DNA from: Alphaproteobacteria bacterium
GTDB taxonomy: Bacteria; Pseudomonadota; Alphaproteobacteria; UBA828
Length of the DNA: 64,000 nucleotides
Assembly: GCA_965216915.1 (NCBI GenBank)
Contig: CBDCGS010000011.1
Location: 523,230 to 587,229, forward strand
Direction of reading: 5' to 3'
In this document: in pieces, positions 5,581 to 58,833 of the stretch
Layout of the letters: each line of letters begins with the position of its first letter
How positions within the stretch are numbered: position 1 is the stretch's first letter
The notes under the pieces: generated by a model
What the model was told of the DNA's origin: nothing
Databases searched by the model: none
The model's input: only the letters and a program-made list of their open reading frames with translations
Program-made: the position numbers and the translations under genes

Positions 5581-5581
5581 G

Positions 5582-5956
5582 TCAGGTCGGTCCTGCTCGC
5601 TGGCGTGCAGGCTTTTTTTTGAAGTTGATGCCCTCGTCGTTCAACAAACGCCAAAGCGAGCCATAGCTCGCCCGCACCCCGCGCTCCTGCAGTTCCGAGA
5701 CCAACGCACGCAGCGTGATGTCCGGTGAGGCGGCGAGCCGGTCCAGCAACCAGTCGCGCTCGCCAAGCAGCAAACGCGGCAGCCGGCTGCCCATCGGCTT
5801 CGCAGCAACGCTGCCCGTCGCTCGGTAGCGCTGCGACCACTTCACAACGCTCGAAACGCTCACACCAAAGTGAGACGCAACCTCCCGAACAGGCTGACCC
5901 GCCTCAACCCGAGCAACAACACGAGAACGAAGATCCTCCGAATAGGCTCGTGCCAT
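5582..5956 (-). CDS. IS630-family transposase, N-terminal HTH part (OrfA); terminates 9 codons after an A8 run
   Basis: Helix-turn-helix N-terminus typical of IS630 (SEDLRSRVV...[21 protein letters not shown]). Minus-strand A8 at 5613-5620. Confidence 0.8.
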
Positions 5957-6049
5957 CCATACTGGCCTCCTTCTCCAGCCAGCATCTTGAATCAGTTTTC
6001 TCGCCCCTTGGGAATCCCCACAAACGATTCAACTAAACTGAATCGTGCT

Positions 6050-14744: not shown

Positions 14745-17700
14745 TCAGCCGGCAGCCTCGCGCGAGCGCCCGTAGGCTTGGAGTCCCTCCGGCGTGACGA
14801 AGCCGTCCAGCAGATCCTCCCGGATGGCATCGTCATCGCGCTCTTTCGGGTCGCCCCAACCGCCACCGCCGGGCACCCGCACGAGGATCTGATCGCCGCG
14901 ATGAAGTGCGATGTTGACGAATTTCGTCGGGCTGACCGTGCCGAACACCTCCTTGAAGGTGCGGAAATCATCGTCGCCGACCCGCTTGACGAAGAACCCC
15001 GTGGGCGCGCCCGGCTGGCCACTCATGAGGCCGAAGGGCCCCTCGGTGATGCGATCCGTCAACGCGCTGACACTGACCTCGTCGGCAACCACCTCGAACT
15101 GCCGCCAGCAACCGAGGCCGCCGCGCCACTTGCCGGCGCCGCCCGAGTCCGGGCGGATCTCGTATTTGAGGACGCGTAAGGGGAAGCGGGTCTCGAACAC
15201 CTCGATCGGCGTCGCTCGGATCGTGCTCGCATGGGCGCAGCAAAGCGCGGTGTTGCCATCCTTGCCGAGCCGGCCACCCCAACCGCCACCCTCCAGCTGG
15301 TAGTGGGTCCAATAATCGCCCGTGTCCGGGTGAATACCGCCGAGCAGCAGGTTGCAGGCCGTGCCGCCCTCGGCAGCGCTCACCATCTCGGGGACGGCTT
15401 TCGCGAGCGCCTGCTGCACCGCGGCGATGATCCGCGGTTGCCCTTCGGTGTTGCCCGCGACGCTCGGCGCCGGAAACACCGGGTTCGCGACCGTTCCGGG
15501 CGGTGCGACGACGCGCAGCGGTTTAAAGCACCCGCTATTGAGCGGCACGTCGCGCGCGCAGAGCGTCTGCAGCACCGCGGTGCAGCCGGCGGCGGCCGTC
15601 GCGACATAGGTGACGTTGATTGGGCCGCGCGCCTGCTTGTCCGACTCCGAGAGGTCGACGACGATCTCCTCGTCCCGGATGTGCACGGTCGGGCGGAAAT
15701 AGTAGCGCTCGGCGGTGACCCCATCGTCCTCGAAATAATCCTCGGCCTTGTAGATGCCGTTCGGAAGCTTTCCGATCTCGCTCCGCATCCACTGCTCCGC
15801 ATGGTCGACCAGCGCGTCGCAAATTCGCTCGAAGGTCTCGATGCCCAAGCGCTCCACAAGGGCGCTGAGGCGCTGCTCGGCGGTGTTGAGCGAGCCGATC
15901 ATCGCGTGGAAGTCACCCCAGGTGGTGTTCGGCGTGCGGTGATTGGCGAGCGCGATGCGCCAGACATCCTTCACATATTCGCCGCGCGAGATCAGCTTCA
16001 CCGGCGGCAGCCGCAAGCCCTCTTGAAACACCTCCGTCGCCGTGCTCGCGAACGAGCCGACCGCCATGCCGCCGATCTCCGCGATATGCGCGATGTTCGC
16101 CGCATAGCCGACAAGCGTGTCGCCGACGAAAACCGGCTTCATCAGCAGATGCTCGGGCATGTGGCACTGACCGCGGTAGGGGTCGTTGTGAACGATCACA
16201 TCGCCCGGCTCGATCGGGTCGTCCATCTCCTTCACGCAAAGCGGCACGGTGTGGAGTCCGGCACAGATGATCGCGGGGTTCATCTCGGCCTGGCCGACCA
16301 TGCGCAGCTGCCGATCGAACAGGCAGCACGAGAAGTCGCGCGACTCGCTGAAGATGGGCGAATAGGCGGTGCGCACCATCGCGCTTTCCATCTCGTCGCA
16401 GATGTTGCCGAGCGCGTTGTTGACCACGGTCAGCGTCACCGGATCTTGCTCGGGCGCGAGCCGGCCGGTGCCGACGGCCGCGGCGGCCTGCGGGAGGCTC
16501 ACGATCAGGCTGCCGTCCGCCCCGATCTCGACCGTGCTCTGCGGCGGCACGAGCGTCGTGGAGTCCATCTCGTCGATGATCGCCGGCCCCGCGATCGTGG
16601 CGCCCGCCGCCAGCGCCGCACGGCGATAGACCGGCGTCTCGAGCGGCTCGGCGTCGTCGAAATAAACCGCGCGGTGCGCATGCGGCTCTCCCGAGCCCGT
16701 GGCCGGCGCGCGCAATCTCGCGTCGGTCTGCTCCTCGCCGCGCGCGATCACGCGCACCTCGGTCAGCTCCGCAACCTTGTCGCGGAGCGCGTAGCCATAG
16801 AGCTCCTCGTGCTGCCGGTGCAGGCCTTCGAGCGCGCGGGCGAACGCAGCCTCGTCGAGCGACAACGTGTCGAGCTGCACGAGCTCGCCGAAGTTCTGCC
16901 CCATGTAGCGCATGTTGAGGAAGCCGGTCACCGTCGCGTCACCCGCCAGACCGTCGCGCTTCAGCTCCGCGACCGCCTCGTGGGCCAGGGTCTCGAGCTG
17001 CCCATTCAAGGCGGCGAGATCGACCGTGTCCGAGCGATGGTTGACGGTGCGGGCCCGGTCAACCCGCAGGTCGGTGAGCAGCGTGCCGAGCGCCGAGCAG
17101 AGGCCGGGATGCGGCGGGACCACCACCTTCCGCATGTCGAGCGGCGCCGCGACGTCGACCGCATGCAGCGGTCCGGCGCCGCCGAAGGCGATCAGCGCAT
17201 AGTCGCGATGGTCGATCCCGCGCTCGACGGTCATGAGCCGGATGGCGTCGGCCATGTTCTCGGCCGCCGTTTCGAGGATCGCGCGCGCGGTTTCCACCGC
17301 CGTGAGGCCGAGCTCCTTGCCGAGCCCGCCCACGGCCTCGTGAGCGCGGGCCGCATCCAACCTCATCTCGCCGCCGAGAAAGTAGTCGGGATCGAGCCTG
17401 CCGAGCACCACGTTCGCGTCCGTCACCGTCGGCTCGGTGCCGCCGCGCCCGTAGCAGGCCGGACCCGGGTCGGCGCCCGCGCTGCGCGGGCCGACCCGCA
17501 GCAAGCCACCGACATCGACGTAAGCGATCGAGCCGCCGCCCGCGCCGATGGTCGTGTAGTCGATGAAGAGCGCGCTCACCGGCACACCCCATTCAACCTC
17601 ATATTCCGTCGTGGAGCCGAAAGCGCCGTCGGTGATGAGCCCGACGTCGCAGCTGGTGCCGCCCATGTCGAGCGTGACGCCATTGCCGTCCGCGTGATCC

Positions 17701-18530
17701 CGCGCGAAGCGCGCGCCGGCGATGACGCCGCCGGCGAGCCCCGACAGGAGCAGCTGCACCGGCACATCGCCGGCCGATTCGGCCTGAACATGGCCACCGT
17801 TCGATTTCATGAGCGAGAGCGGCGCGTCGATGCCCGCATCCCCCAGGTCGGCCGAGAGGCGGCCGACGAAGCGGTCGATGATCCGCTTGATGAACGCATC
17901 GGTAATCACCGTCGCGCTGCGCTGGTATTCGCGCCAAATCGGGCAGACGTGATGCGAGAGCGAGACCGGCAGATCCGGGAAGCGCCCGGAGAGATAGGCG
18001 CCGATCGCCTCCTCGTGACGCGGATCGACGTAGGAGAACAGAAGATTGACCGCCACCGCCCAATCGGTGTCGGGCGCGGCCTCGAGCCAGCCGGCGACCC
18101 AATCGCCCAGTCTCGCAAGCTCGGCGTCCGCGAGCGCGATCAGCACGTTGCCCTTGTGGTCGACGCGCTCGCGGATCCCGAACACGTGCCGGCGCAGCAC
18201 ACCGGCCGAGGGTTTCTCCCAGGCCGGGTTGTAGGCCTCCTTGCGCGCGATCAGGCCGATGATCGGAACGTCCTGAACGCCCTCGGTGCCGACATAGAGC
18301 ACCGTCGCGCCCTTCTTCTGCAATCGCGCGTTGGTCGCGATGGTGGTGCCGAGCACGATGCGCCCAATCTCGTCGGGCGCGAGATCGCTCTGCCGGAGCG
18401 CGGCGAGCGGCGCCTGCGCGGGCTCCTTCGGCGTGGAAGCGACCTTGACGGTGCGGATCTCTCCCGTCTGGTCGTCGAGCGCGACGAGATCGGTGAAGGT
18501 GCCGCCGGTGTCGATGCCGACCCTATACAT
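14745..18530 (-). CDS. Fused hydantoinase A (HyuA-like) + hydantoinase B (HyuB-like) / 5-oxoprolinase-like ATP-dependent amidohydrolase, 1261 aa
   Basis: The N-terminal half matches the Hydantoinase_A fold (MYRVGIDTGGTFTDLV). The C-terminal half is Hydantoinase_B-like. This single-polypeptide architecture is like eukaryotic 5-oxoprolinase. A strong RBS GGGAGGGG precedes the ATG. Confidence 0.85.
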   Translation of the reverse strand: MYRVGIDTGGTFTDLVALDDQTGEIRTVKVASTPKEPAQAPLAALRQSDLAPDEIGRIVLGTTIATNARLQKKGATVLYVGTEGVQDVPIIGLIARKEAYNPAWEKPSAGVLRRHVFGIRERVDHKGNVLIALADAELARLGDWVAGWLEAAPDTDWAVAVNLLFSYVDPRHEEAIGAYLSGRFPDLPVSLSHHVCPIWREYQRSATVITDAFIKRIIDRFVGRLSADLGDAGIDAPLSLMKSNGGHVQAESAGDVPVQLLLSGLAGGVIAGARFARDHADGNGVTLDMGGTSCDVGLITDGAFGSTTEYEVEWGVPVSALFIDYTTIGAGGGSIAYVDVGGLLRVGPRSAGADPGPACYGRGGTEPTVTDANVVLGRLDPDYFLGGEMRLDAARAHEAVGGLGKELGLTAVETARAILETAAENMADAIRLMTVERGIDHRDYALIAFGGAGPLHAVDVAAPLDMRKVVVPPHPGLCSALGTLLTDLRVDRARTVNHRSDTVDLAALNGQLETLAHEAVAELKRDGLAGDATVTGFLNMRYMGQNFGELVQLDTLSLDEAAFARALEGLHRQHEELYGYALRDKVAELTEVRVIARGEEQTDARLRAPATGSGEPHAHRAVYFDDAEPLETPVYRRAALAAGATIAGPAIIDEMDSTTLVPPQSTVEIGADGSLIVSLPQAAAAVGTGRLAPEQDPVTLTVVNNALGNICDEMESAMVRTAYSPIFSESRDFSCCLFDRQLRMVGQAEMNPAIICAGLHTVPLCVKEMDDPIEPGDVIVHNDPYRGQCHMPEHLLMKPVFVGDTLVGYAANIAHIAEIGGMAVGSFASTATEVFQEGLRLPPVKLISRGEYVKDVWRIALANHRTPNTTWGDFHAMIGSLNTAEQRLSALVERLGIETFERICDALVDHAEQWMRSEIGKLPNGIYKAEDYFEDDGVTAERYYFRPTVHIRDEEIVVDLSESDKQARGPINVTYVATAAAGCTAVLQTLCARDVPLNSGCFKPLRVVAPPGTVANPVFPAPSVAGNTEGQPRIIAAVQQALAKAVPEMVSAAEGGTACNLLLGGIHPDTGDYWTHYQLEGGGWGGRLGKDGNTALCCAHASTIRATPIEVFETRFPLRVLKYEIRPDSGGAGKWRGGLGCWRQFEVVADEVSVSALTDRITEGPFGLMSGQPGAPTGFFVKRVGDDDFRTFKEVFGTVSPTKFVNIALHRGDQILVRVPGGGGWGDPKERDDDAIREDLLDGFVTPEGLQAYGRSREAAG

Positions 18531-18824: not shown

Positions 18825-19070
18825 CTACCCGCCGCCGATCCGCGGCAGGAAGCAGACCTCGCTGTCGGGCTTGACCGGCGAGAAGAGCGCGTCCTGGTGG
18901 ATCTCGCCGTCGATCGCGACGGCCATGCCGTCCTCCAGCCACGGCCCCATCGCCGGGAAGCGCGCCTGAAGCGCGCGGATGACATCGCGCACGTTCGTGG
19001 CCGTGACCTCCACCTCGGTCTCGCCGTCCGCGAAGGCGGCGAGACCGCCTGTGAGCAGCACCTTCACCAT
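18825..19070 (-). CDS. MoaD/ThiS-family ubiquitin-like sulfur-carrier protein, 81 aa, C-terminal Gly-Gly
   Basis: Beta-grasp pattern MVKVLL...V.....GGG. The end CFLPRIGGG parallels MoaD VAFFPPVTGG. RBS GGAGGAG upstream. Confidence 0.8.
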   Translation of the reverse strand: MVKVLLTGGLAAFADGETEVEVTATNVRDVIRALQARFPAMGPWLEDGMAVAIDGEIHQDALFSPVKPDSEVCFLPRIGGG

Positions 19071-19109: not shown

Positions 19110-21407
19110 CTAGTCGTCCCCGCCGCCCTCATGATCGAGCGCCGCGAGGAGACGCGGCGGCGACATCGGCAGATCGCTCATGCGCACGCCGGTGGCGTCG
19201 GCAACGGCGTTGGCGACAGCCGCCATGGGCGGGATGATCGGCACCTCGCCGACGCCACGCACGCCGAACGGATGGGTCGGGTTCGGCACCTCGACGATGA
19301 CCGCGTCGATCATCGGCAGGTCGGATGCGACCGGCATGCGATAATCGAGGAAGCCCGGGTTCTCGAGGCGGCCCTCGTCGTCGTAGATGTACTCCTCGTT
19401 GAGCGCCCAGCCGATGCCTTGGGCGGCACCGCCCTGGATCTGGCCCTCGACGTAGCTCGGGTGGATCGCCTTGCCGGCATCCTGCACCGCGGCGTAGCGG
19501 AGCACGGTGACCCGGCCGGTCTCGCGATCGACCTCGACATCGCAAATGTGCGTGCCGAAGCCTGGGCCGGCGCCCTGCGCGTTGATCTGCGCATGACCCA
19601 TGATCGGGCCACCGGTCTTGCCGGCCTGAGCCGCGATCTCCGCGAGCGAAAGCGGCTCGAACTCGCCGGCGTTGCTGCCGGCGGGCTTCGCATGGCCATC
19701 CTCCCAGACGACGGCGTCCTCGGCGATGTCCCAGATCTTGGCGGCGCGGGCGCGCATTTGACTGACCACATCTTCCGCCGCCTGAACCACGGCCATGCCG
19801 GTGGCAAACGTCACGCGGCTGCCGCCCGTGAGGAAGGTGTAGCCGAGCGAGCTCGTGTCGGCGACGAGCGGGCGCACCCGCTCGAGGTCGATGCCCAGCA
19901 CCTCGGCCGCCATCATGGCGAGCGAGGCGCGCGAGCCGCCGATGTCGGGATTGCCCTCGATCACCGTCGCGGTGCCATCCTCGTTGATGTTGATGCTCGC
20001 GCAGGATTCGCCGCCGATGTTGAACCAAAAGCCCGAAGCGACGCCGCGCCCCTGGTTCTCGCCGAGCGGGACGCTGTATTGCGGGTGGTTTTGCGCGGCA
20101 TCGAGGGTCTCGATAAAGCCGATCGGCCCGAATTCGGGCCCATGCAGGGTGCGCGTGCCCTCCTTGGCCGCGTTCTTCCGGCGGAAGTCGAGCGGGTCGA
20201 TGTCGAGCTTGCGCGCGAGCTCGTCAAGCACGATCTCGACGCCGAATTCCGCGATCGGTGCGCCCGGCGCCCGATAGGCCGCCACCTTCGGCCGATTGAC
20301 CACCACGTCGTAGCCGACGACCTTGGCGTTGTCGATGTCGTAGGGCGCGAAGGCGCACATGCAGCCGGGCAGGATCGGCGAGCCAGCAAAGGCGCCGGCC
20401 TGATATTTGAGCTCCGCCTCGGCGGCCGTGATGCGGCCGTCCTTGGTGGCGCCGATCTTGATCCAGGTGGTGCCGCCCGAGGTCGGGCCGGAGGCGCGAA
20501 ACACCTCCTCGCGCGACATCACGATCTTCACCGGCCGGCCGGTCTTTTTGGCGAGCAGCACGGCGAGCGGCTCGATGTAGACGACCGTCTTGCCGCCGAA
20601 GCCGCCGCCGATCTCCGACGGCGTCACGCGGATCTCCGAAAGATCCATGGCCAGCAGATTGGCGATGTAGGAACGCACCGTGTACTGGCCTTGGGTCGTG
20701 CACCAGACCTGGCACTGGCCATCCTCGGAGACGCTCGCGACCGCGGCATGGGGCTCGATATAGCCCTGATGCACGGGCTTGGTGGAAAAGCGACGCTCGA
20801 CGATCACGTCAGCCTTCGCGAAGCCCGCTTCCACATCGCCCTTGTCGAGATCGACCCGCTTCGCGACGTTGGAGGGCTTGGTCGGCGCCGGCTCGACCCC
20901 CTGGGTGATCTGATCGTCGTGGAGCACGGGCGCGTCCGGTTCCATCGCCTTCTCGACGTCGATCACGTGAGGCAGCACCTCGTAGTCGACCTTGATGAGC
21001 TTGAGCGCCTCCTTGGCGATGGCCGGCGAGGTGGCGGCGACGGCGGCGAGCGCGTGGCCGTCATAGAGCACCTTGTCGCGCGCCATGACGTTGCAGGACA
21101 TGTCGCGGAAATTCACCAGCACCTCGCCCGCGGGCAGCCAATCGGCCGGCGGGAGCGGCGGCATGTCGTCACCGGTGATCACCGCCTTGACGCCCGGCAG
21201 GGCCCGCGCCGCCGACGTGTCGATCGACTTGATGCGCGCGTGGGCGTGAGGGCTCCGCAGCACCCGCCCGACGAGCATGCCGGGCAGTGAGAAATCGGCG
21301 CCGAATTTTGCGCGTCCGGTGACCTTGTCCACCCCGTCGGGCCGCACGGGCCGCTTGCCGACCCATTTGAGATCGCCGTTTTGCGCGTCTTTCAGTGCCG
21401 TTGCCAT
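19110..21407 (-). CDS. Molybdopterin-dependent oxidoreductase large (MoCo-binding) subunit, xanthine dehydrogenase / CoxL / aldehyde oxidase family
   Basis: About 765-aa protein with the typical N-terminal a/b-hammerhead and MoCo-binding regions. The ATG overlaps the small-subunit stop (TGATG). Confidence 0.9.
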
Positions 21408-21886
21408 CACGCATCTCCTCTCATGTCGGCCGCCGCGAGCATCACGGCCCGTATCACTTTGTCATACCCGGTGCAGCGGCAGAGATTGCCAGCCAGCCAG
21501 TAACGTGCCTCGGTTTCGGTCGGGTTGGGATGGCGCTCGAGCAGCGACTTCGCCGCGATCAAGAGGCCCGGCGTGCACACCCCGCATTGCAGCGCCGCTT
21601 CCTCGAGGAAGCGTTGCTGGAGGGGATGGAGCGTCTCGCCATCGGCCATCCCCTCGATGGTCTCGACCGAGCGGCCCCGGGCCTCGGCGCCAAGCACGAG
21701 GCAGGAGCACACCAGCCTGCCGTCGAGCAACACACTGCATGCGCCGCAATCGCCGGTGCTGCAGCCTTCCTTGCTGCCCGTCAACCCAAGCTCGTCGCGG
21801 AGCACGTCCAGCAACGTTTCCTCCGCCGTGCACAAAAACTCGACCGGCTCGCCGTTGACCGTCGTTTCGACGTGATATTTCGCCAT
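21407..21886 (-). CDS. (2Fe-2S)-binding small subunit of the molybdenum hydroxylase (CoxS-like)
   Basis: Two [2Fe-2S] motifs: C-x4-C-x2-C...C ([12 protein letters not shown]) and QCGVCTPG / CRCTGY. Confidence 0.9.
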
Positions 21887-22756
21887 CTAACCGTTCCTCG
21901 CACGCTCGAGGGCGATCCCGGCGGCGCGGCGTGCCAAGACGCCTGCCACCTTGACGCGGTATTCGACCGTGCCTCTCTTGTCATCGATCGGGTTGCACGC
22001 CGCGCTCGCCGCGGCCGCCAGCTTCTCGAGCGCCGGCGCGTCGACTGGCGTGCCGATCAGCGCGTCGGCGCCCTCCGTCACCAGGAGAGGACGCGGGGCG
22101 ACCGCGCCGAGACCGACGCGTGCCTCCGTGCAGACGCCATCGCCATCGAGCGTCAGGTTGACGCCCGCACCCACGACCGCGATATCCATCTCGGTCCGGG
22201 GAATAAAGCGCAGGTAAGCGTCGCCGCGTCCGGCCGCCTTGCCGGGAAGCGTGAACGACACCACGAACTCACCGCGCTGAAGCACGGTCTCACCCGGCGC
22301 GGTCACGAACTCCTCGACCGGAACCGTGCGCCGGCCGTCGGGGCCCGCAACGTTGCACACGGCGCCCGCAGCGATCAGGGCCGGCACCGTGTCGGCGGCC
22401 GGCGACGCGTTGCAAAGATTGCCGCCGAGCGATGCGCGCCCTTGGATCTGGGTCGAGCCGATCAGCTCGGTCGCCTCGACGACGCCGGGCCAGGCCGCCT
22501 TGAGCGCCTCGTGCTCGCCGATCTCGGCGCCCGTCGCCGCAGCCCCGATGTGAAACGAGCCATTTTCCTCCGTGATCGCGCGGACCTCGGGGATCTGCTT
22601 CACGTCGACGATCACCGCCGGTTCGATCATGTCGAGCCGGAGCTGGACCAGCAGATCCGTGCCGCCAGCCAGCACCTTTGCCCCGCCGTTCGCATCTGCG
22701 AGGCATCGCACCGCCTCGTCCACCGACGTCGGCGCTTCATACCGTTGTGTCACCAT
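21887..22756 (-). CDS. FAD-binding medium subunit of the molybdenum hydroxylase (CoxM-like, FAD_binding_5 + CO_deh_flav_C)
   Basis: Motif AGGTDL and the typical CoxM length (289 aa). Its stop abuts the small-subunit ATG. Confidence 0.9.
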
Positions 22757-46671: not shown

Positions 46672-48774
46672 ATGACTGGTGACGAGCGCGCACGGATCGG
46701 CGTGGATATCGGCGGCACCTTCACCGATGTGGTGCTGGAGCGCGCCGGTGCGCGCTTCACGGCGAAGGTGCTGACCACGCCCCAGGCGCCCGAGGACGGC
46801 GTGCAAAACGGCCTTTCGCGCGTCATGGACCAGGCCGGCGTCACTCCCGACGCGGTTTCCCTGGTGATTCACGGCACCACCCTCGCGACCAACGCCCTGA
46901 TTGAGCGCAAGGGCGCGAAAACGGCGCTCATCACCACCGAGGGTTTTCGTGATTCAATTGAAATGGGCACCGAAAGCCGCTTCGAGCAATACGACATCTA
47001 CATGGAAAAGCCGACACCGCTCGTGCCACGGCACCTGCGCGTGCCGGTGGCCGAGCGGCTCAACGCAGCCGGCGAGGCGGTGCTACCGCTCGACGAGGCT
47101 AGGCTGCGCGCGGTCGCGGGCGAGCTGGCGAGCGCCGGCGTGGAGAGCATCGCGATCGGCTTTCTCCACAGTTATGTGAACCCGGCGCACGAGGAACGCG
47201 CGAGAGAGATTCTGAGCGAAGTCCTCCCTGACGTGCCGACGTCGCTCTCCTGCGAGGTGGCGCCGGAAATGCGCGAATATGAGCGCTTCTCGACCGCCTG
47301 CGCGAACGCCTATGTCCAGCCGGTGATGGCGCGATACCTGAAGCGGCTGGAAGCGCAGCTCCGCACCCAGGGCTTCGACTGCCCGCTGTTCGTGATGTTG
47401 TCGGGCGGCGGCGTGACCGATATCGAGACCGCCGTGCGCTTCCCTATCCGCCTCGTCGAATCGGGTCCGGTGGGGGGCGCGGTGTTCGCGAGCGACGTTG
47501 CCAAGCGATCAGACCTCGATCGCGTGCTCTCGTTCGACATGGGCGGCACGACGGCGAAGATCTGCTTCATCGACAATGCGCAGCCGCAAACGGCGCGCAG
47601 CTTCGAGGTCGCCCGCGCGCACCGCTTCCTCAAGGGTAGCGGGTTGCCGCTGCGCATCCCCGTGATCGAAATGGTCGAGATCGGCGCAGGTGGCGGGTCG
47701 ATCGCCAAGGTCGATCAGCTCGGCCGTATCACGGTCGGCCCGGAGAGCGCAGGCGCCGACCCCGGCCCGGCCTGTTATGGCCAGGGCGGCACAGCACCGG
47801 CGGTGAGCGATGCCGATGTCGCGCTCGGCCGCATCGACCCCGACGCATTTTCGGGCGGCCGCATCGCCCTCGACGCGGATGCCGCGGCGCAGGCGCTCGG
47901 GCGCGACGTCGGCGAGGCACTCGGCCTCGAGCCTCGCATCGCCGCGCTTGGCATCAGTGAAATGGTCGATGAGAACATGGCGAGCGCCGCGCGCGTGCAT
48001 GCGATCGAGATCGGCGCAACACTTGGCGAGCGCACCATGATCGCCTTTGGTGGCGCCGCGCCCCTGCATGCCGCGCGGCTCGCCGAAAAGCTCGAGATGG
48101 ACCGGGTGATCGTGCCGACCTCCGCCGCGGTTGGCTCGGCGGTGGGCTTCCTGCGCGCGCCGGTGGCCTACCAAGTCATCCACACCGCCTACCAAACCCT
48201 TTCGACATTCGATCCCGCCGCGGCAAACCGCGCGCTCGACGCGATGCGTGCCGAAGCCGAGGCCATCGTCGCGCGCGGCGCGCCTGGCGAGCCCACGGAG
48301 GAAACGCGCACCGCGTTCATGCGCTATCTCGGGCAGGGTCACGAGGTGCCGGTCCCGCTGCCGGTGCGGACATGGCAAGCCAGCGATACGGCGCTCATCC
48401 GTGACGCGTTCGAGGAGGCCTACGAACGGCTCTACGGGCGTATCATCCCGGAGCTCGATCTCGAGATCGTGAGCTGGTCCGTTCAGGTGGCGGCCGTTCC
48501 CTCCGTCACGGCCGCGAACGGCGCGGGTATCGTCGCCTCAACGCCGGCGGCGCACGGGACCCGGCAAGTCTTGGATCCCGGCCGCGGCGGGCTGGTCGAT
48601 GCCGCCCTATACCGGCGCGAAGACCTGTCCGCAGGCGCACGCATCGAGGGGCCGGCGCTGATCCTGGAGACCGACACCACGACGGTGGTGAGCGCGGCAT
48701 TTGCCGCAGCCGTGGACGCGCAAGGGTTCATCGTGATGGAGCGGCGCACAGAAAATACCGGAGACAGCCCATGA
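46672..48774 (+). CDS. Hydantoinase A / N-methylhydantoinase A-like (HyuA; oxoprolinase family beta-type subunit)
   Basis: N-terminal motif IGVDIGGTFTDVVL and an extensive Hydantoinase_A-like sequence. Start is either ATG 46672 or GTG 46618. Confidence 0.9.
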   Translation: MTGDERARIGVDIGGTFTDVVLERAGARFTAKVLTTPQAPEDGVQNGLSRVMDQAGVTPDAVSLVIHGTTLATNALIERKGAKTALITTEGFRDSIEMGTESRFEQYDIYMEKPTPLVPRHLRVPVAERLNAAGEAVLPLDEARLRAVAGELASAGVESIAIGFLHSYVNPAHEERAREILSEVLPDVPTSLSCEVAPEMREYERFSTACANAYVQPVMARYLKRLEAQLRTQGFDCPLFVMLSGGGVTDIETAVRFPIRLVESGPVGGAVFASDVAKRSDLDRVLSFDMGGTTAKICFIDNAQPQTARSFEVARAHRFLKGSGLPLRIPVIEMVEIGAGGGSIAKVDQLGRITVGPESAGADPGPACYGQGGTAPAVSDADVALGRIDPDAFSGGRIALDADAAAQALGRDVGEALGLEPRIAALGISEMVDENMASAARVHAIEIGATLGERTMIAFGGAAPLHAARLAEKLEMDRVIVPTSAAVGSAVGFLRAPVAYQVIHTAYQTLSTFDPAAANRALDAMRAEAEAIVARGAPGEPTEETRTAFMRYLGQGHEVPVPLPVRTWQASDTALIRDAFEEAYERLYGRIIPELDLEIVSWSVQVAAVPSVTAANGAGIVASTPAAHGTRQVLDPGRGGLVDAALYRREDLSAGARIEGPALILETDTTTVVSAAFAAAVDAQGFIVMERRTENTGDSP

Positions 48775-50519
48775 CGGCCTCCCAGAGCGCGCTCGAGCGC
48801 ATCCAGACCCAGATCATGTGGAACCGCTTGATCGCGGTCGTCGAGGAGCAGGCGCAAACGCTGCTGCGAACCGCGTTCAGTACCACGGTCCGCGAGGCCG
48901 GCGATCTCTCGGCCGGCGTGTTCGACGTCGAGGGGCGGATGCTGGCGCAGGCCGTTACCGGCACCCCGGGGCACGTCAACTCGATGGCGGTCTCGGTGAA
49001 GCACTTCCTCGAACGCTATCCCAACGAAGAGATGCGCGAGGGCGACGTCTTCATCACCAACGACCCTTGGCTCACCTGCGGGCATCTTCACGACCTCACC
49101 GTCGTGACCCCGGTCTTCAAGAAAGGCCGCATCATCGGGTCATTCGCCTGCACGGCCCATATCGTCGATATCGGCGGGCGCGGGTTTGGGCCGGACGCGC
49201 GCTCGGTGTTCGAGGAGGGCCTCTACATTCCGATCATGCCGCTTGCGCGCGAAGGGCGGATCAATCGGGACCTGCTCGAGATGGTGCGATGGAACGTGCG
49301 AGAGCCACTTCAGGTCGAAGGGGACATCTTCTCCCTGATCGCCTGCAACCGCGAGGGCGCGCGCCGGCTCAACGCGATGATGGACGAGTTCAGCCTCGAC
49401 GACTTGCAGGCGCTCGCTGACGACATCATCACCCGCTCACGCGAGGCCACGCTGACAGCCATCCGCGCACTACCCTTCGGCACTTACCGCCATTCCCTCA
49501 CGATGGACGGCTATAACGAGCCCATCGACCTCGTCGCCGCGACGACAATCAGCGAGGACGGCATCCACACCGATTTTGAGGGCACCTCGCCGGCGAGCAA
49601 TCACGGCATCAACGTCGTGCTCAACTACACGACCGCCTACACCAGCTTCGGTGTGAAATGCATCGTCGCCAAGGACGTGCCCAACAATGCCGGCTCGCTG
49701 AGCCCGATCACGGTTTCGGCGCCTGAAGGCTCCATTCTCAACGCACCACGGCCTTGGCCGGTCGCCTCGCGCCATGTCATCGGCCACCTGCTGCCCGATT
49801 TGGTATTCGGCTGCCTGCACCAGGCGATCCCCGGACAGGTGCCTGCGGAAGGCGCGGCCTCGCTGTGGATCGTCCAGCTCCGGGGCGGCGCGACGGCGGT
49901 CGATGCCGAGGCGCGCCGGAACTCGGAGATCGACTGGCCGGAGTTCGAAATCGCGCTCTTCAACTCGGGCGGTGCGGGGGCGCGGCCGAAGCGTGATGGC
50001 CTGTCGACGACGGCGTTTCCGAGCGGCGTGCGCACGATGCCGGTGGAGGCCTCTGAGACCGTGGCGCCGATCGTCATCTGGCGCAAGGAGATGGCGCGCG
50101 ACAGCGGCGGCGCGGGTGAATTGCGCGGCGGGCTTGGCCAGGTGATGGAAATCGCCGGCGCGGAGGGTGCGCCCTTCAGCGTGCTGGCTCAGTTCGAGCG
50201 CATCGACCATCCGGCCCGCGGCCGCGCGGGCGGCGGCAACGGCGCACCCGGGGCCATCGCGCTCGCCTCCGGCACGCGCCTGCGTGGCAAAGGCCAGCAG
50301 ACCATCCCGACCCACGACCGGCTTCGCTTGGCGCTCCCCGGCGGCGCCGGCTATGGCGATCCGTTTGCCCGTGACGCGACGGCGGTTGCGGACGACGTCC
50401 TGAACGACCTGGTCACGCCGGAGACCGCGCGCCGCGACTATGGGGTCGTGGTCTCCGCCGACGGCACGATCGACGAGGCGGCCACCGCAGCGCTTCGTGG
50501 CGGCGGCGCCAAGTCCTAG
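48771..50519 (+). CDS. Hydantoinase B / oxoprolinase-like (HyuB), coupled to HyuA by an ATGA overlap
   Basis: Hydantoinase_B-like sequence (DPWLTCGHLHD, FNSGGAGARP). Confidence 0.9.
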   Translation: MTASQSALERIQTQIMWNRLIAVVEEQAQTLLRTAFSTTVREAGDLSAGVFDVEGRMLAQAVTGTPGHVNSMAVSVKHFLERYPNEEMREGDVFITNDPWLTCGHLHDLTVVTPVFKKGRIIGSFACTAHIVDIGGRGFGPDARSVFEEGLYIPIMPLAREGRINRDLLEMVRWNVREPLQVEGDIFSLIACNREGARRLNAMMDEFSLDDLQALADDIITRSREATLTAIRALPFGTYRHSLTMDGYNEPIDLVAATTISEDGIHTDFEGTSPASNHGINVVLNYTTAYTSFGVKCIVAKDVPNNAGSLSPITVSAPEGSILNAPRPWPVASRHVIGHLLPDLVFGCLHQAIPGQVPAEGAASLWIVQLRGGATAVDAEARRNSEIDWPEFEIALFNSGGAGARPKRDGLSTTAFPSGVRTMPVEASETVAPIVIWRKEMARDSGGAGELRGGLGQVMEIAGAEGAPFSVLAQFERIDHPARGRAGGGNGAPGAIALASGTRLRGKGQQTIPTHDRLRLALPGGAGYGDPFARDATAVADDVLNDLVTPETARRDYGVVVSADGTIDEAATAALRGGGAKS

Positions 50520-52186: not shown

Positions 52187-52696
52187 CTAATTACCGATCG
52201 GCAGGACGTCCAGAAAGAACATGGTTAGGAAAAGGAAAATTAGATAACAAGAGGTGTACAAAAGCACATCCGACCACGAAAGAGCCCGGCGCTTTGGGCT
52301 GGGTGCTACGATGTCGGACAAATCGTCGAGCGTCTCTGCCTCGGTCGATCCTGGGTCGTCCGGATCGGAGACCGAGAGGGCGGCCTCGGCCGCGAGCGTC
52401 TCGACCGGCGGTTCTGGAACCTCAAGGTCGTCTGCGGCCACCTGCGGCGTGTCGGCCTTGTCGCTCTTAGGTATCTCGATCGTGGCCTTTGCCGCACCCG
52501 GCTGCGAGGCGGCCGCCGGCGTGCGGGTGCGCTTTATCATGGCGCCGGTGAGCGAAGCGGCGGGCTTCTGAAGATCCTCGGCGTTGCCGGTCTTCGACGC
52601 TTCGACGCCGGTTTCGCCCTCGGCGGGCACCGGATCTGGCTGAGAAAGCGATGCGGCTTTCCCGGTCGGCAAGGCTTTGGCGGAGTCGGCAGCCAT
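52187..52696 (-). CDS. Hypothetical acidic, Pro/Ala-rich (disordered) protein with a single C-terminal TM segment (tail-anchored)
   Basis: Low-complexity N-terminus and C-terminal hydrophobic LLYTSCYLIFLFLTMFFLDVL. The start was chosen at MAADSAK; it lies 5 nt after the RHH gene stop. Confidence 0.45.
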   Translation of the reverse strand: MAADSAKALPTGKAASLSQPDPVPAEGETGVEASKTGNAEDLQKPAASLTGAMIKRTRTPAAASQPGAAKATIEIPKSDKADTPQVAADDLEVPEPPVETLAAEAALSVSDPDDPGSTEAETLDDLSDIVAPSPKRRALSWSDVLLYTSCYLIFLFLTMFFLDVLPIGN

Positions 52697-52701
52697 CGGG
52701 C

Positions 52702-53094
52702 CTATTCCCTTGCGCTCTTGCGCTTGAGGTCGAACGGCGAGCTCAGGCAGTCGCAGGTGGCGTCGCACACCTGCAAGGCAACCTCATCGAGATGCCGATC
52801 GAGCGCTTCGACCAGAATGTCCTGCATGCTCTTTCGCAAAAGCGTGCTCGCGAGACGCAGGCGCTGGTGAGTATCGCGATCGAGCTTGACGGATGCTTTG
52901 ACGCGGTTATCACGCCGAGACCCCAGGCCCAACCGTTGTTTGCCCCTGTGTGCCAGAAGCGGGAACTGAATCGCCGGAGGCGTTGCGACATCGTCGGCCC
53001 GCAAGCGCCGATCGGGGCCGAATGTCGACGGCAGCGCGCCGCCCTTGGCCGCGAGGAGCGTGCTGGCGAGATGATCCGCATCGCCTTGGCTCAA
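52702..53094 (-). CDS. Small putative ribbon-helix-helix DNA-binding protein (ParG-like partner of the ParA ATPase); TTG start overlapping the ParA stop
   Basis: Predicted beta-strand-helix-helix region KASVKLDRDTHQRLRLASTLLRKSMQDILVEALDRHL; translationally coupled (TTGA). Confidence 0.45.
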   Translation of the reverse strand: MSQGDADHLASTLLAAKGGALPSTFGPDRRLRADDVATPPAIQFPLLAHRGKQRLGLGSRRDNRVKASVKLDRDTHQRLRLASTLLRKSMQDILVEALDRHLDEVALQVCDATCDCLSSPFDLKRKSARE

Positions 53095-53876
53095 CGGTAG
53101 GCCCTCGCACGCTCAGCGGTGGTAGGGTCCTCAACGGACTCGCCCGTTGCATCGTCCGTCGTGCCGTCGGGCGAGACGGGAACGTCCTCACTCGGGGAAA
53201 GCGCGGTTTCAAGCTGGCGAATGGTGTGCCCGGTCGGAAGCCGCTTATCACCGATCGACTTGCCGAGCTGCTGCGCCACATAGGCCCAGAGCTCCTCGAT
53301 TTCGGCGGCGGAGCGTTCCGCCTTGGGAAGCTCCATGACGGTCCGCCCATCGATCATGCTGGCGGCGAAATCCGTCCGCTGGTGAACGATGGCGGGCGCA
53401 ACGGTGCCATGCTGCGAGAGCGCGATGGCGGCCTCGCCCGTGATGCGTGCGCGGGCCGAGGCGCCGTTGACCACGAAGACCAGCCGCTTGTCGAGTTGCT
53501 CCACCAACTCCACGGTCGCCCCGGCGGCGGAAAGATCGTGCGGGCTTGGGCGCACGGGAATGATGACCAGATCGGCGCAGCGCACGACCTCGACGATCGT
53601 CGTCGTGATGGCCGGCGGCGTGTCGATGACCACGAGCTCGATGCCCTTTTCGGCGAGTTCTGCGAGGGCATCGGGCAGCTGAGAAACATAGGTGCGCGCG
53701 AAGACGGGCGTGTCGACGGGGCGCGCGTTCCACCACACCGACAGACTGCCCTGCGGATCGGTGTCGACCAGCGCGACCGGGCCGGCGCCCGCCCGCTCGG
53801 CTTGTACTGCCAAATGGCCGCATAGGGTCGTCTTGCCCGATCCGCCCTTCTGCGATGTCACCGCTATTACCTGCAT
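53091..53876 (-). CDS. ParA/MinD-family ATPase (small type-Ib ParF-like), orphan (no ParB)
   Basis: Deviant Walker A SQKGGSGKTT; motifs DTDPQGS and VIDTPP. RBS GAGGTGG 5 nt upstream of the ATG. Confidence 0.85.
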   Translation of the reverse strand: MQVIAVTSQKGGSGKTTLCGHLAVQAERAGAGPVALVDTDPQGSLSVWWNARPVDTPVFARTYVSQLPDALAELAEKGIELVVIDTPPAITTTIVEVVRCADLVIIPVRPSPHDLSAAGATVELVEQLDKRLVFVVNGASARARITGEAAIALSQHGTVAPAIVHQRTDFAASMIDGRTVMELPKAERSAAEIEELWAYVAQQLGKSIGDKRLPTGHTIRQLETALSPSEDVPVSPDGTTDDATGESVEDPTTAERARAYR

Positions 53877-53930
53877 AGGTTCCACCTCGCCCCACGGCCT
53901 GAGGGCCTGGCCAATTTCCGCAAAATCGTC

Positions 53931-54218: not shown

Positions 54219-55304
54219 ATGAAATGGGCTGGGGCGGCATTCGCCATCGCGCTCGGTGCGGCGACGGTGGCCGCCGCCGAGGAGGCGGTGGTCAACGTCT
54301 ACAACTGGTCGGACTACATCGACGAGGAGCTCTTGGTCGAGTTCGAGGCCGAGACCGGGATCAAGGTGGTCTACGACGTCTTCGATTCGAACAACATTCT
54401 CGAAACCAAGCTGCTGACCGGCAAATCGGGCTACGACGTGGTGGTGCCGAGCGGCACCTTCCTGGCGCGACAGATCCAGGCCGGCGTGTTTCAGGAGCTG
54501 GACAAAGCCAAGCTAACGAACCTCGGCAACATGGACGCCGCGATCATGGACCGGGTGAAACGCTGGGACCCGAGCAATTCCTACGCGGTCAATTACATGT
54601 GGGGCACCACAGGGTTCGGCTACAACACCGCCAAGATCGCCGAGCGCATGGCGGATGCGCCCGTTGGCTCGTGGCGCATGATGTTCGATCCGGCGGTCGT
54701 GGCCCGCTTTGCCGACTGCGGCGTCTACCTCATGGATGAGCCCGACGAGGTCATCCCCGCCGTGCTCAACTATCTGGGCGAAGATCCGGATTCGAAGGAC
54801 GTCGACGTCATCGCCAAGACCGAGCCGGTGCTCATGGCGATCCGCCCCTATATCCGCAAGTTCCACAACTCGGCTCAGATCAACGACCTCGCCAATGGCG
54901 ACATCTGCCTCACCATGGGCTGGTCGGGCGACATGCTGCAGGCGCGCGATCGGGCGGTGGAGGCCGAAAACAATGTCGACATCGCCTATGTGATCCCGAG
55001 CGAGGGCGCGCTGATGTGGTTCGACATGATGGCGGTGCCGGCGGATGCGCCGCACCCGGAGAATGCCCACGCCTTTATCAACTACATCATGCGGCCGGAC
55101 GTGATTGCGCGCGCCTCCAACTACGTCTACTACGCCAACGGGAACGCGGCCGCAACGCCGCTACTCGAGGCGGATCTGGTTGAGGATGAGGGCATTTATC
55201 CGCCCGATTCGGTCAAGGCCAAGCTCTACATCACCGACCCGATGCCGCCCAAGACGCAACGCTTCGTCAACCGCCTGTGGACGCGGGTCAAGAGCGGGAA
55301 CTGA
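54219..55304 (+). CDS. Polyamine ABC transporter substrate-binding protein (PotF/PotD-like, putrescine/spermidine)
   Basis: Signal peptide and PotD/PotF-family blocks (VYNWSDYI, YDVVVPS, WGTTG). RBS GAGGAG upstream. Confidence 0.9.
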   Translation: MKWAGAAFAIALGAATVAAAEEAVVNVYNWSDYIDEELLVEFEAETGIKVVYDVFDSNNILETKLLTGKSGYDVVVPSGTFLARQIQAGVFQELDKAKLTNLGNMDAAIMDRVKRWDPSNSYAVNYMWGTTGFGYNTAKIAERMADAPVGSWRMMFDPAVVARFADCGVYLMDEPDEVIPAVLNYLGEDPDSKDVDVIAKTEPVLMAIRPYIRKFHNSAQINDLANGDICLTMGWSGDMLQARDRAVEAENNVDIAYVIPSEGALMWFDMMAVPADAPHPENAHAFINYIMRPDVIARASNYVYYANGNAAATPLLEADLVEDEGIYPPDSVKAKLYITDPMPPKTQRFVNRLWTRVKSGN

Positions 55305-55329: not shown

Positions 55330-56448
55330 ATGATGAGAGACCCGGCCCCGTCGGAGGCGCCACGGGCGGAGACTTCGGTTCGGATCGCGGGCGTCTCTAA
55401 AAGCTTCGGCGACATCGTCGCCGTAGACGACGTCTCGCTGGACATCGCAACGGGCGAATTTTTCGCGCTGCTGGGGCCGTCGGGGTGCGGCAAGACGACG
55501 CTGCTGCGCCTGCTCGCCGGGCTCGAGACGCCGAGCGACGGCGCGATCCTGATCGACGGTGCCGACGTGACGCGGCTCCCGCCCTACCGCCGGCCCGTCA
55601 ACATGATGTTTCAATCCTACGCGCTGTTCCCGCATATGACGGTCGCCGGCAACATCGCGTTCGGGCTCAAGCAGGACCGCGTGCCGCGGCGCGCGCTTCG
55701 GCAGCGGGTCGACGAAGCCCTCGCGCTCGTCCAGCTCACCGAGCTCGCGGAGCGGAAGCCGCACCAGCTCTCCGGTGGCCAGCGCCAACGCGTGGCGCTC
55801 GCCCGCAGCCTGGTCAAGGAGCCGCGCCTGCTGCTGCTGGACGAGCCGCTGGCAGCCCTCGACAAAAAGCTGCGCGAGGAAACCCAGTTCGAGCTTATGG
55901 CGATCCAGCGGCGCGTGGGCATCACCTTCGTCATCGTCACCCACGACCAGCAAGAGGCCATGACGATGGCGAGCCGCATCGCCGTGATGGAGCGCGGCCG
56001 CATCGTCCAGGTGGGCACGCCGACGCAGATCTATGAGGCACCGGCATGCCGCTATGTGGCTGAGTTCATTGGTGATGTGAACATTTTCGAGGGGCACGCC
56101 ACGCGCATCGAGGGAGACCGGGTGGAAATCGGCTCGCCGGACACGGGCGCGACGCTCATCGCGACCGCGACACCCAACGGCTTGACCGCGGGCGAGCGCG
56201 TGTGGCTCGCCGTCCGGCCTGAGAAGATTGTGCTTTCCAGCGAGCCGAACCAGGGCTCCTGGAACGGATTGACCGGTGAGGTTGCCGAGGTCGCCTATCT
56301 CGGCAACGCCTCGGCTTATCGTGTGCGCCTCGACAACGGCCGCATGATCACCGCGCGCCGTGCCAACGCAGATGCAGGCACCGCGCGATCCGACGGACGG
56401 GTCCATCTGTCGTGGCCGCCCGACGCGAGCATCCTGCTCCGCTCCTAG
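55330..56448 (+). CDS. Polyamine ABC transporter ATP-binding protein (PotA/PotG-like)
   Basis: Walker A GPSGCGKTT, signature LSGGQRQRVALARS, Walker B LLLDEP. Confidence 0.9.
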   Translation: MMRDPAPSEAPRAETSVRIAGVSKSFGDIVAVDDVSLDIATGEFFALLGPSGCGKTTLLRLLAGLETPSDGAILIDGADVTRLPPYRRPVNMMFQSYALFPHMTVAGNIAFGLKQDRVPRRALRQRVDEALALVQLTELAERKPHQLSGGQRQRVALARSLVKEPRLLLLDEPLAALDKKLREETQFELMAIQRRVGITFVIVTHDQQEAMTMASRIAVMERGRIVQVGTPTQIYEAPACRYVAEFIGDVNIFEGHATRIEGDRVEIGSPDTGATLIATATPNGLTAGERVWLAVRPEKIVLSSEPNQGSWNGLTGEVAEVAYLGNASAYRVRLDNGRMITARRANADAGTARSDGRVHLSWPPDASILLRS

Positions 56449-57374
56449 GCGCGCGGGCGCGGCCGGCGGGCTGGCCGACGCTCGATTCCGGGGCGGCGCG
56501 CGCCGTCCTCATTCTTGTTCCGTTCTTGTGGCTGCTGCTGTTCTTCCTCGTCCCGTTCTTGATCACGCTCAAGATCAGCGTGGCCGAGACGTTGATCGCG
56601 ATGCCGCCCTACTCGCGCCTACTCGACTGGGGCGAGGGCTCTTGGCCGTCCTTCTTGGTCTCGTTCGACAATTACGCCCTGCTCGCCGAGGACGACCTCT
56701 ACATCAGGGCGTATCTCAGCAGCCTGAAGATCGCTGCGATCTCGACCGCGATCACGCTCGCGCTCGGCTTTCCCATCGCCTACGCGATGGCGCGCGCGCC
56801 GCGGGCCTGGCGGGGCGCGCTCGTGATGCTCGTGATCCTGCCGTTCTGGACGTCGTTCCTGATCCGGGTCTACGCCTGGATCGGCATCCTCAAGAACGAG
56901 GGCCTGCTCAACAATGCGCTGATGTGGCTCGGCCTGACCGACGGGCCACTCGTGATCCTCAACACCGACATCGCGGTCTATATCGGCATCGTCTACTCGT
57001 ACCTGCCGTTCATGATCTTGCCGCTTTACGCGACGCTCGAGCGGATGGACGAATCGCTCTTGGAGGCGGCGGCCGATCTCGGCTGCCGCCCCGCCAAGGC
57101 GTTCTGGGTGATCACCGTGCCGCTCGCCAGGCCGGGCATCATCGCTGGCTCGTTTCTCGTGTTCATTCCGGCCGTCGGCGAGTTCGTCATCCCGGATTTG
57201 CTCGGCGGCTCTGGCACGCTGATGATCGGCCGCACGCTTTGGACGGAGTTCTTCGCCAATCGTGACTGGCCGGTGGCGTCGGCCGTCGCGGTCATCCTGC
57301 TGCTGCTCTTGATCGTGCCGATCGTGCTGTTTCAGCGTCATCAGCAGGCCGCCCGGCTGCGGGAGGCCGGGTGA
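56412..57374 (+). CDS. Polyamine ABC transporter permease (PotB/PotH-like)
   Basis: 6-TM permease with an EAA-like loop (LEAAADLGCRPAKAFW). Confidence 0.85.
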   Translation: MAARREHPAPLLGARARPAGWPTLDSGAARAVLILVPFLWLLLFFLVPFLITLKISVAETLIAMPPYSRLLDWGEGSWPSFLVSFDNYALLAEDDLYIRAYLSSLKIAAISTAITLALGFPIAYAMARAPRAWRGALVMLVILPFWTSFLIRVYAWIGILKNEGLLNNALMWLGLTDGPLVILNTDIAVYIGIVYSYLPFMILPLYATLERMDESLLEAAADLGCRPAKAFWVITVPLARPGIIAGSFLVFIPAVGEFVIPDLLGGSGTLMIGRTLWTEFFANRDWPVASAVAVILLLLLIVPIVLFQRHQQAARLREAG

Positions 57375-58197
57375 TGGAGCGGCGCCTCAGCCTCACCAAC
57401 CTCACCGCGCTGACCCTCGGCTTCGCGTTTCTCTACATCCCGATCTTGCTGCTCATCGCTTACTCGTTCAACGAATCGCGCCTGGTCACGGTGTGGGGCG
57501 GCGTGTCGACCAAATGGTACGGCGAGCTTGCCCGCAACACGGCAATCCTCGACGCGGCATGGATGACCGTGAAGGTCGGCCTCGTCTCCTCGACCGTCGC
57601 GCTCGTGCTCGGCACGGTCGCGGGCCTTCTGCTGGCCCGCATGGCGCGCTTTCCCCGGACGCACGCTCTTCACCGGCATGGTCTATGCGCCGCTCGTCAT
57701 GCCCGAGGTGATCACGGGGCTCTCATTGCTTCTGCTCTTCGTGTCGCTCGATTGGACGCGGCGGGTTTTGGACGATCACGGTCGCCCACGCCACCTTCTC
57801 GATGGCCTATGTCGCCGTGGTCGTGCAGTCGCGCCTCGTGACCATGGACCGCTCGATCGAGGAAGCGGCGATGGATCTCGGCGCGCCGCCGGTCAAAACC
57901 TTCTTCGCGGTCACCCTGCCCATCATCAAGCCGGCGCTGATCGCGGGGTGGCTCCTCGCCTTCACACTCTCGCTCGACGACCTCGTCATCGCCTCGTTCA
58001 CCAGCGGACCGGGCGCGACGACGCTCCCGATGAAGATCTACTCCCAAGTGCGCCTCGGCGTAACGCCCGAGATCAACGCGGTCTCGACGATCTTGGTCGG
58101 CATCGTCGCGACAGGCGTGATCGCGGCGAGCCTCCTCAACAAACGCGCGCTCCTGAGGCGCGCGCGCGACGTGAGGCTTGCGGGACGCGATCATTAG
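57371..58197 (+). pseudogene. Polyamine ABC transporter permease (PotC/PotI-like) interrupted by two +1 frameshifts (at ~57654-57657 and ~57755-57768)
   Basis: The PotC-like sequence is continuous only across three frames. MMERRL...ARMARFP is in frame 2; GRTLFTGMVYAPLVMPEVITGLSLLLLFVSLDWT is in frame 0; GGFWTITVAHATFSMAYVAVVVQSRL...EAAMDLGAPP...SLDDLV is in frame 1. The first shift lies in a CCCC run. Confidence 0.6.
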
Positions 58198-58221
58198 CAC
58201 TCCCGTTGGCGACACAACAGA

Positions 58222-58833
58222 ATGGACGATGCCCATGCGCCTCTACGACTTCGCCAAATCGGCAACGGCTACAAGATTAGGCTCATGCTCAACCACCTAC
58301 AGATCGCCTACGAGCGGGTTGAGCTGAACATCGTCGAAGGCGAGACCCGTACGCCCGAATTCCTCGCGAAGAACCCGATCGGCCGGATCCCCACCCTGGA
58401 GCTTGACGACGGCACCTGCCTCGCGGAATCGGACGCGATCTTGTTCTATCTCGCACGTGACACGGACTATCTGCCGGCCGATCGGCTCGGGCAAAGCCAG
58501 GTGCTACAATGGATGTTCTTCGAGCAGTATTGTCACGAGCCATACATCGCCGTCGTGCGGTTTTGGCATTTTTCGGGCCGGGCGGAGGCCATGCAGGCCG
58601 AAATTCCGGCCCGCACGGAGCGCGGCTATCAGGCGCTCGGCGTCATGGAGCAGCACTTGGCGGCGAACGACTTTTTCGTCGGCGGGCGCTACTCCATCGC
58701 CGACATCGCGCTCTACGCCTACACCCACGTGGCGGAGGAGGGTCGGTTCGACCTCGCGCGTTTTCCAGCCATCCTCGCCTGGCTCGACCGGGTGAAGAGC
58801 CAGCCCCGCCATATTCCCATCACGCAAATCTAG
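58222..58833 (+). CDS. Glutathione S-transferase; the native N-terminus is apparently disrupted by a 1-nt deletion (canonical MRLYDFAKS start is in another frame)
   Basis: GST N- and C-domain blocks (PEFLAKNPIGRIPTLELDDG, ESDAILFYLA). The ATG at ~58235 encodes MRLYDFAKS in the -1 frame and then terminates. The conserved S-GNGYKIRL continues only in the track frame. Confidence 0.7.
   Translation: MDDAHAPLRLRQIGNGYKIRLMLNHLQIAYERVELNIVEGETRTPEFLAKNPIGRIPTLELDDGTCLAESDAILFYLARDTDYLPADRLGQSQVLQWMFFEQYCHEPYIAVVRFWHFSGRAEAMQAEIPARTERGYQALGVMEQHLAANDFFVGGRYSIADIALYAYTHVAEEGRFDLARFPAILAWLDRVKSQPRHIPITQI

Follow-up and report, generated by a model that had tools for sequence, protein, structure and literature searches.

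The window that we analysed, a 64-kb stretch of DNA with a GC content of 65.7 %, carries on its + strand a potFGHI-like operon (54.2-58.2 kb) with a GST gene 3' of potI. As deposited, neither potI nor the GST gene can be read in a single frame, and the locus raises the question of whether the organism is losing a putrescine importer and its neighbour or whether the deposited sequence is wrong. We find that the three single-base indels responsible are probably a local patch of consensus indel errors, with potI and GST intact in the organism. The operon, the GST gene and the three indels are laid out as follows:

54219..55304, + strand, potF-like periplasmic putrescine-binding protein, 361 aa, intact
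55330..56448, + strand, potG-like ATPase, 372 aa, intact
56412..57374, + strand, potH-like permease, intact; longest ORF, the true start may be further downstream
57374..57652, + strand, first potI segment, frame 2, residues 1-93; 73 % identity to the orthologue in L001, a related pot locus
57650..57656, + strand, indel site 1, insertion of a T or C within TTTCCCC
57657..57759, + strand, second potI segment, frame 0, about residues 95-128; encodes GRTLFTGMVYAPLVMPEVITGLSLLLLFVSLDWT
57760..57762, + strand, indel site 2, insertion of a G or C within CGGCGGG (57759-57765)
57763..58197, + strand, third potI segment, frame 1, residues ~130-273, stop at 58195-58197; 87 % identity to L001
58235..58260, + strand, GST start, frame 2, MRLYDFAKS
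58261..58262, + strand, indel site 3, deletion of one G; the deposited GG should be GGG (TCG GGC AAC) in the family frame
58261..58833, + strand, GST remainder, frame 1, GNGYKIRL... to the stop

The order potF-potG-potH-potI is common to all related loci and is that of the PotFGHI putrescine ABC importer of E. coli. PotF matches NCBIfam PotF NF007962 over residues 2-360 (profile 7-369 of 370), PotG matches PotG NF008621 (profile 20-375 of 377) and PotH matches PotH NF007963 (profile 27-311 of 317); the exact PotG product is present in the public protein collection (P0128). Once its frame is repaired, PotI has the EAA-loop region EEAAMDLGAPP and aligns end to end with the E. coli PotFGHI/PotC family. 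The window differs from the E. coli system in two respects, namely that its proteins score under the NCBIfam equivalog cut-offs and that its deposited potI is broken into three frames. Judged by sequence, the predicted substrate of the importer is putrescine.

An earlier note on this DNA had described two frame breaks in potI and one in GST, and these breaks are real, at or beside the positions proposed there, over a span of 612 bases. The deposited potI requires three frames, frame 2 from ATG 57374, frame 0 from ~57657 and frame 1 from ~57762 to the stop, and a six-frame codon-usage Viterbi segmentation finds both potI switches and the GST switch (~58255) independently. In the orthologues of the locus comparison, as in the nine orthologues from L001-L012 that we aligned at the DNA level, potI occupies a single frame, and across sites 1 and 2 the window gene aligns colinearly, base for base, with its orthologues. 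The alignment reads TTTCCCCGG in the window against TTCCCCGG or TTTCCCGG in the relatives at site 1, where the relatives have TTCCCC or TTTCCC; the extra T or C therefore falls within 57650-57656, in line with the switch that had been placed in a CCCC run at ~57654. The second switch, whose position the note did not give, can now be placed at 57760-57762 in a GG/C/GGG context with no long run, with ACGCGGCGGGTTTTGG in the window against GCGCG-GGGC or GCGCG-CGGC in the same nine orthologues. Both switches are +1, as had been claimed, and each corresponds to one extra base, that is, to an insertion.

Removing the two bases restores a PotI of 273 aa. Removal at site 2 brings back Gly130, a residue that all 69 orthologues share, and the second segment, like the 36 codons that are out of frame as deposited, is 86 % identical after repair to the L001-L003 orthologues. 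The repaired protein aligns to NCBIfam PotI NF007889 in a single stretch (residues 11-270, profile 14-279 of 281, E 1.6e-94), Pfam BPD_transp_1 PF00528 spans residues 80-255, and the alignment with E. coli PotC (8y5f_C) likewise runs in one stretch over residues 13-256. Its score of 316.6 bits lies under the 476-bit NCBIfam equivalog cut-off, and on its sequence the repaired protein is PotI-like, short of a certified equivalog.

The GST gene shows the opposite lesion. Its canonical start and its conserved continuation lie in different frames, as the earlier note had seen, and an alignment of 14 homologues confirms that one G has been deleted at 58261-58262. The family N-terminus in this alignment is M(R/K)LYDFxESGNGYK: MRLYD is present in 11 of the 14 and M(L)(R/K)LYD in the others, while all 14 have xxSGN.YK. 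The public gene call (P0123) is instead a 203-aa ORF from ATG 58222 with an out-of-frame N-terminus, in which the first 9 residues are replaced. With one G inserted the protein is 199 aa long and contains GST_N (PF02798) at 1-75 and GST_C (PF00043), both complete and colinear, and it aligns with PDB 3m3m_A over residues 3-196; only after this insertion does the gene combine the two domains and the family N-terminus that mark a cytosolic GST. It resembles the bacterial GSTs 3m3m, 3m8n and 4hz2 and, more distantly, YfcG (Nu class) in its GST_N and GST_C domains, its N-terminal SGNGYK motif and its length (199-200 aa). It departs from them by five substitutions at columns invariant in the family and, as deposited, by a first beta-strand (MRLYDFAKS) that lies out of frame with the rest. 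GC is 58 % in the 5' half of the gene, lower than in its neighbours, and the closest homologues, at 79 % identity, come from Kiloniellales MAGs. GST and the His/Arg-type ABC genes downstream are absent from L001-L005, and synteny with the nearest relatives stops at the 3' end of potI; GST may be an accessory gene that was acquired recently or is drifting.

One explanation for frame changes in otherwise readable genes is that the cell decodes them, with ribosomal or transcriptional slippage restoring potI and GST, or with a functional split permease. The window does contain one genuine slippage gene, so that recoding is in use elsewhere in this organism:

5014-6029, - strand, IS630-family transposase, split at an A8 run (5613-5620)

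Here two frames join at TTC AAA AAA AAG, and one A fewer would fuse them. The best plasmid IS630 homologues from finished genomes all match in two pieces, and the RefSeq CDS of the IS630 of Methylosinus trichosporium OB3b, 949 nt long, has the same A8 run. Because the A8 run and the two-frame layout are kept in finished genomes, we regard this split as a native programmed slippage site and not as damage. A conserved frame change at a slippery motif, as recoding demands, is thus found at the IS630 A8 run and at none of the three indels. No slippery heptamer or long run occurs at any of the three sites, and the relatives' potI and all 118 full-length GST homologues (198-212 aa) are single-frame. 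In potI, moreover, two shifts of the same sign 110 nt apart would both need decoding, and the frame-0 segment lacks independent translation signals for a sensible protein. With neither conservation nor slippery motifs, programmed or tolerated frameshifting at potI and GST is effectively excluded.

The remainder of the window was examined for similar lesions. The Viterbi scan detected no other frame change without a stop on the + strand. Of the 40 other genes scanned against Pfam, 32 showed essentially full-length domain coverage, and eight either gave no match or lacked the first part of a domain; three of these eight, at 39179, 53091 and 5014, were examined further and are explained by start choice or by the IS630 split. 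The earlier statement that all other genes in the window are intact is therefore borne out by the scan and by domain coverage, save for one more split gene, the IS630 transposase, whose split is native.

Three further candidate frameshifts, on the - strand, were rejected. The one at 38.6-39.2 kb reflects the start choice of an ABC ATPase. The one at 52.2-53.9 kb corresponds to three separate genes (ParA-like, RHH-like and hypothetical). These are the three ORFs divergent from potF at 52187-53885 on the - strand, in three successive frames: a ParA-like ATPase (264 aa), a 130-aa ORF that has no Pfam match and that, read from its sequence, is a possible ribbon-helix-helix protein, and a hypothetical protein of 193 aa with a hydrophobic stretch at its C-terminal end. 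The candidate at 18.5-19.1 kb resolves into separate small genes, a 69-aa ORF and an 81-aa MoaD/ThiS-like ORF. The latter ends in GG (18825-19070) and adjoins a fused A+B hydantoinase/oxoprolinase gene (14745-18530, - strand, 1261 aa), which is also adjoined by a molybdoenzyme trio of the xanthine dehydrogenase family (19110-22756). A second hydantoinase/oxoprolinase system lies at 46672-50519 on the + strand; here A (700 aa) and B (582 aa) are encoded by two genes instead of one. The window also carries at 9421-14210 (- strand) an intact tandem trio of PrkA (AAA plus kinase C-terminal domain), DUF444 (YeaH-like) and SpoVR-like proteins, the conserved prkA-yeaH-ycgB stress module.

For three points placed at random in 64 kb, the chance of a span of no more than 612 bp is about 3(d/L)^2 = 2.7e-4; the clustering is not due to chance and points to a local cause. 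The longest coding homopolymers in the window (G7 and six 6-mers) are all in frame, which points to a local patch and not to a genome-wide homopolymer problem. We searched the cluster for repeats, inverted repeats, mobile elements and duplicated segments and found nothing meaningful. No abrupt break in composition was seen there either, apart from the low-GC stretch in the 5' half of GST, and a search for a common sequence or methylation-like motif at the three sites returned only GGACG, which is expected by chance about once every 250 bp at this GC.

It is conceivable that the local cause is structural, with a chimeric join, or the collapse of a strain variant, where the conserved pot operon meets the strain-variable accessory region. 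The indel cluster straddles exactly the point at the 3' end of potI where synteny with L001-L005 ends, which speaks for such a mis-assembly. Every lesion is nonetheless a single base and not a breakpoint, the base-by-base colinearity of potI runs through both of its sites, and the cluster is free of repeats, IS elements, duplicated segments and abrupt composition changes. We consider a structural mis-assembly very improbable.

The indels may alternatively be real and very recent. The population would then carry a +1 insertion at each of two sites in potI and a -1 deletion in GST, brought to fixation by drift or because selection disfavoured the uptake of putrescine. The PotFGHI importer would be non-functional, and GST, if it is made at all, would begin at ATG 58222 with 13 foreign residues at its N-terminus. 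In favour of this view, the deposited sequence does contain the indels, public gene calling has yielded the broken ORFs, slippage occurs naturally at short runs and a second hit would be neutral once potI was broken. Young bacterial slippage-frameshift pseudogenes do look like this to the extent that their ORFs are disrupted at short runs with little other divergence. They do not resemble the present locus in another respect, as here two adjacent unrelated genes take three hits and the rest of the operon, potF, potG and potH, is untouched.

A gene that has been released from selection should accumulate substitutions as well as indels. We counted the deviations of the proteins at columns conserved among their homologues, with a leave-one-out comparison. 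Repaired PotI deviates at 0 of 122 columns that are at least 95 % conserved (115 homologues) and is among the cleanest sequences in the leave-one-out comparison; PotF has 0 deviations (77 conserved columns), PotH 1 (100 columns) and PotG 2. Identity to the nearest orthologue, in L001, is 82 % for PotI, 80 % for PotH, 78 % for PotF and 70 % for PotG. In bacterial mutation spectra the ratio of indels to substitutions is roughly 1:10. At this ratio three neutral indels in 612 bp should come with about 9 hits at conserved PotI columns, and none is found. Beyond its indels PotI has undergone no further decay, and this clean record at 122 conserved columns excludes an old pseudogenisation.

The GST profile is less clean. 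After repair, five of the 86 conserved columns carry a deviating residue in GST (V15I, L18M, N49I, G76D and S100C), and this count ties for the highest among 119 sequences with a median of 1. This excess is a weak hint of relaxed constraint, or plain lineage divergence. The substitutional decay expected of a fixed pseudogene is thus absent from PotI and borderline in GST, and the mild excess at invariant positions, the lower GC and the non-syntenic position of GST are what a dispensable accessory gene undergoing real inactivation might show. Even so, three independent indels within 612 bp of two unrelated genes, unaccompanied by substitutions in PotI, are improbable as neutral events. We regard recent inactivation in the cell as unlikely, though it is the first alternative to consider.

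Real indels could also have arisen together in one localised event, for example a ~0.6-kb patch of error-prone repair or recombination where the core pot operon borders the accessory GST. We consider this a distinctly long shot. If true, it would mean an instant knockout of putrescine import in an uncultured alphaproteobacterium with a pure-indel signature and no substitutions.

Related sequences offer an independent view of the lesions. By exact look-up the public protein collection contains the broken products, namely a PotI N-fragment of 155 aa, a PotI C-fragment of 131 aa (P0122, the ORF from ATG 57802) and the 203-aa GST ORF, and does not contain the repaired 199-aa GST. Each broken product is a singleton 90 %-identity cluster, and all come from one contig of 1,786,248 bp that is at NCBI and ENA without protein names; the intact neighbour products are likewise singletons. 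No strain of the same species was found in the collections searched, where the nearest relatives show ~80-83 % amino-acid identity and are unannotated MAGs of uncultured Alphaproteobacteria or Rhodospirillales. The closest matches reach at most 80 % for PotH (scan of genome contigs) and at most 83 % for PotI and 79 % for GST (search of 5.8 billion proteins, in which the best JGI match is 81 %). The note had proposed that orthologues sharing the indels would reveal a fixed pseudogene; none of the available relatives, which are at most 83 % identical, shares them.

Two of the 80 related pot loci (L039 and L050) have split pot genes and the other 78 have none. Both belong to the 11 loci that we counted as long-read, against 0 of the 69 counted as isolate or short-read, the class having been read by us from the record names; the absence of split genes from these 69 loci also argues against real inactivation. 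In L039 potF and potI are each broken by a single extra base (positions 4158 and 6975), and in L050 potI is broken by one extra T (7162-7184), 12 nt from the equivalent of site 1. The two loci are from Microflora Danica MAGs, which were built from Nanopore reads only with Flye and one round of Medaka (PMC12313526). L044, from another Nanopore-only Microflora Danica MAG, has frameshifts at 1408, 1778 and 11018 by the codon-usage scan alone, two of them 370 bp apart. The single-base frameshifts of these three loci affect pot genes and genes beside them.

The closest relative of the pot operon, L082 (ENA ERZ25072384), is on contig ctg338117_4x_l, whose name suggests a coverage of 4x. Its potF and potG are each split by a frameshift, ~900 bp apart (~2768-2811 and ~3700), and its potG and potH are called as one 686-aa product. 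In another relative (P0001) a frameshifted potH is fused with potI. Clusters of single-base frameshifts in this operon thus recur in long-read metagenome assemblies and not in the operon of cultured bacteria.

The confinement of like frameshifts to long-read metagenome assemblies leads us to favour a consensus error in the window too. Long-read consensus is known to keep indels that fragment gene calls, especially below ~40x (Sereika et al. 2022, PMC9262707). The lesions of the window share with the consensus errors of Nanopore or low-coverage HiFi assemblies (PMC9262707, PMC12313526) that they are single-base indels at short runs without substitutions and that they split conserved genes, and the same operon is hit in L039, L050 and L082. 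Artefacts should consist of indels alone and leave full conservation once reverted, and this is the pattern observed. Further arguments for an artefact are that potF, potG and potH, useless without PotI, are nevertheless intact and clean, and that the source is a single contig without protein names, similar to the unannotated long-read MAGs of the nearest relatives. The size of this contig and the pattern of the databases that carry it suggest that it is itself a long-read assembly.

Several observations weigh against consensus error. The window is otherwise clean over its 64 kb, with the three errors inside 612 bp; the assembly is generally good, and some particular local cause must therefore be assumed for a three-error patch. 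No site is a run longer than 2-4 bases, unlike the long homopolymers at which such errors classically occur, and short runs are also preferred by real frameshift mutations. The five GST deviations could, finally, mean relaxed constraint on a gene that is truly dying.

The earlier note had offered a low-quality or mis-assembled stretch or a recent decay of the putrescine locus as the two possible causes. This pair fits the data, which narrow it further, with old decay excluded and structural mis-assembly unsupported. What is left standing is a base-level consensus error, which we favour, or very recent, nearly simultaneous real mutations. With consensus error as the cause, the indels would have arisen in sequencing or assembly and not in the cell, as base-level errors limited to a ~0.6-kb patch of a long-read metagenome contig, and low coverage or strain-mixed reads would be the likely source. 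Strain-variable content on the GST side, where synteny ends, could perhaps give mixed read support, although this is speculation. In the organism itself, potI and GST would be intact, and the locus would encode an ordinary putrescine ABC importer of the PotFGHI type and, after it, a YfcG/Nu-like GST.

The finding is an ordinary one and none of the readings is novel. It has consequences nonetheless, since two fragments of PotI and a GST with a wrong N-terminus are obtained from the contig as deposited and are already singleton "proteins" in public collections. Reverting the indels, testing the repaired proteins for decay at family-conserved columns and comparing the frequency of split orthologues between long-read and isolate assemblies provides a cheap triage of such cases that needs no reads. 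For the biology of this lineage the inference at stake is polyamine uptake: if the indels are consensus errors, the transporter would be wrongly scored as broken from the deposited sequence, and if the lesions are real, it would instead be wrongly scored as present.
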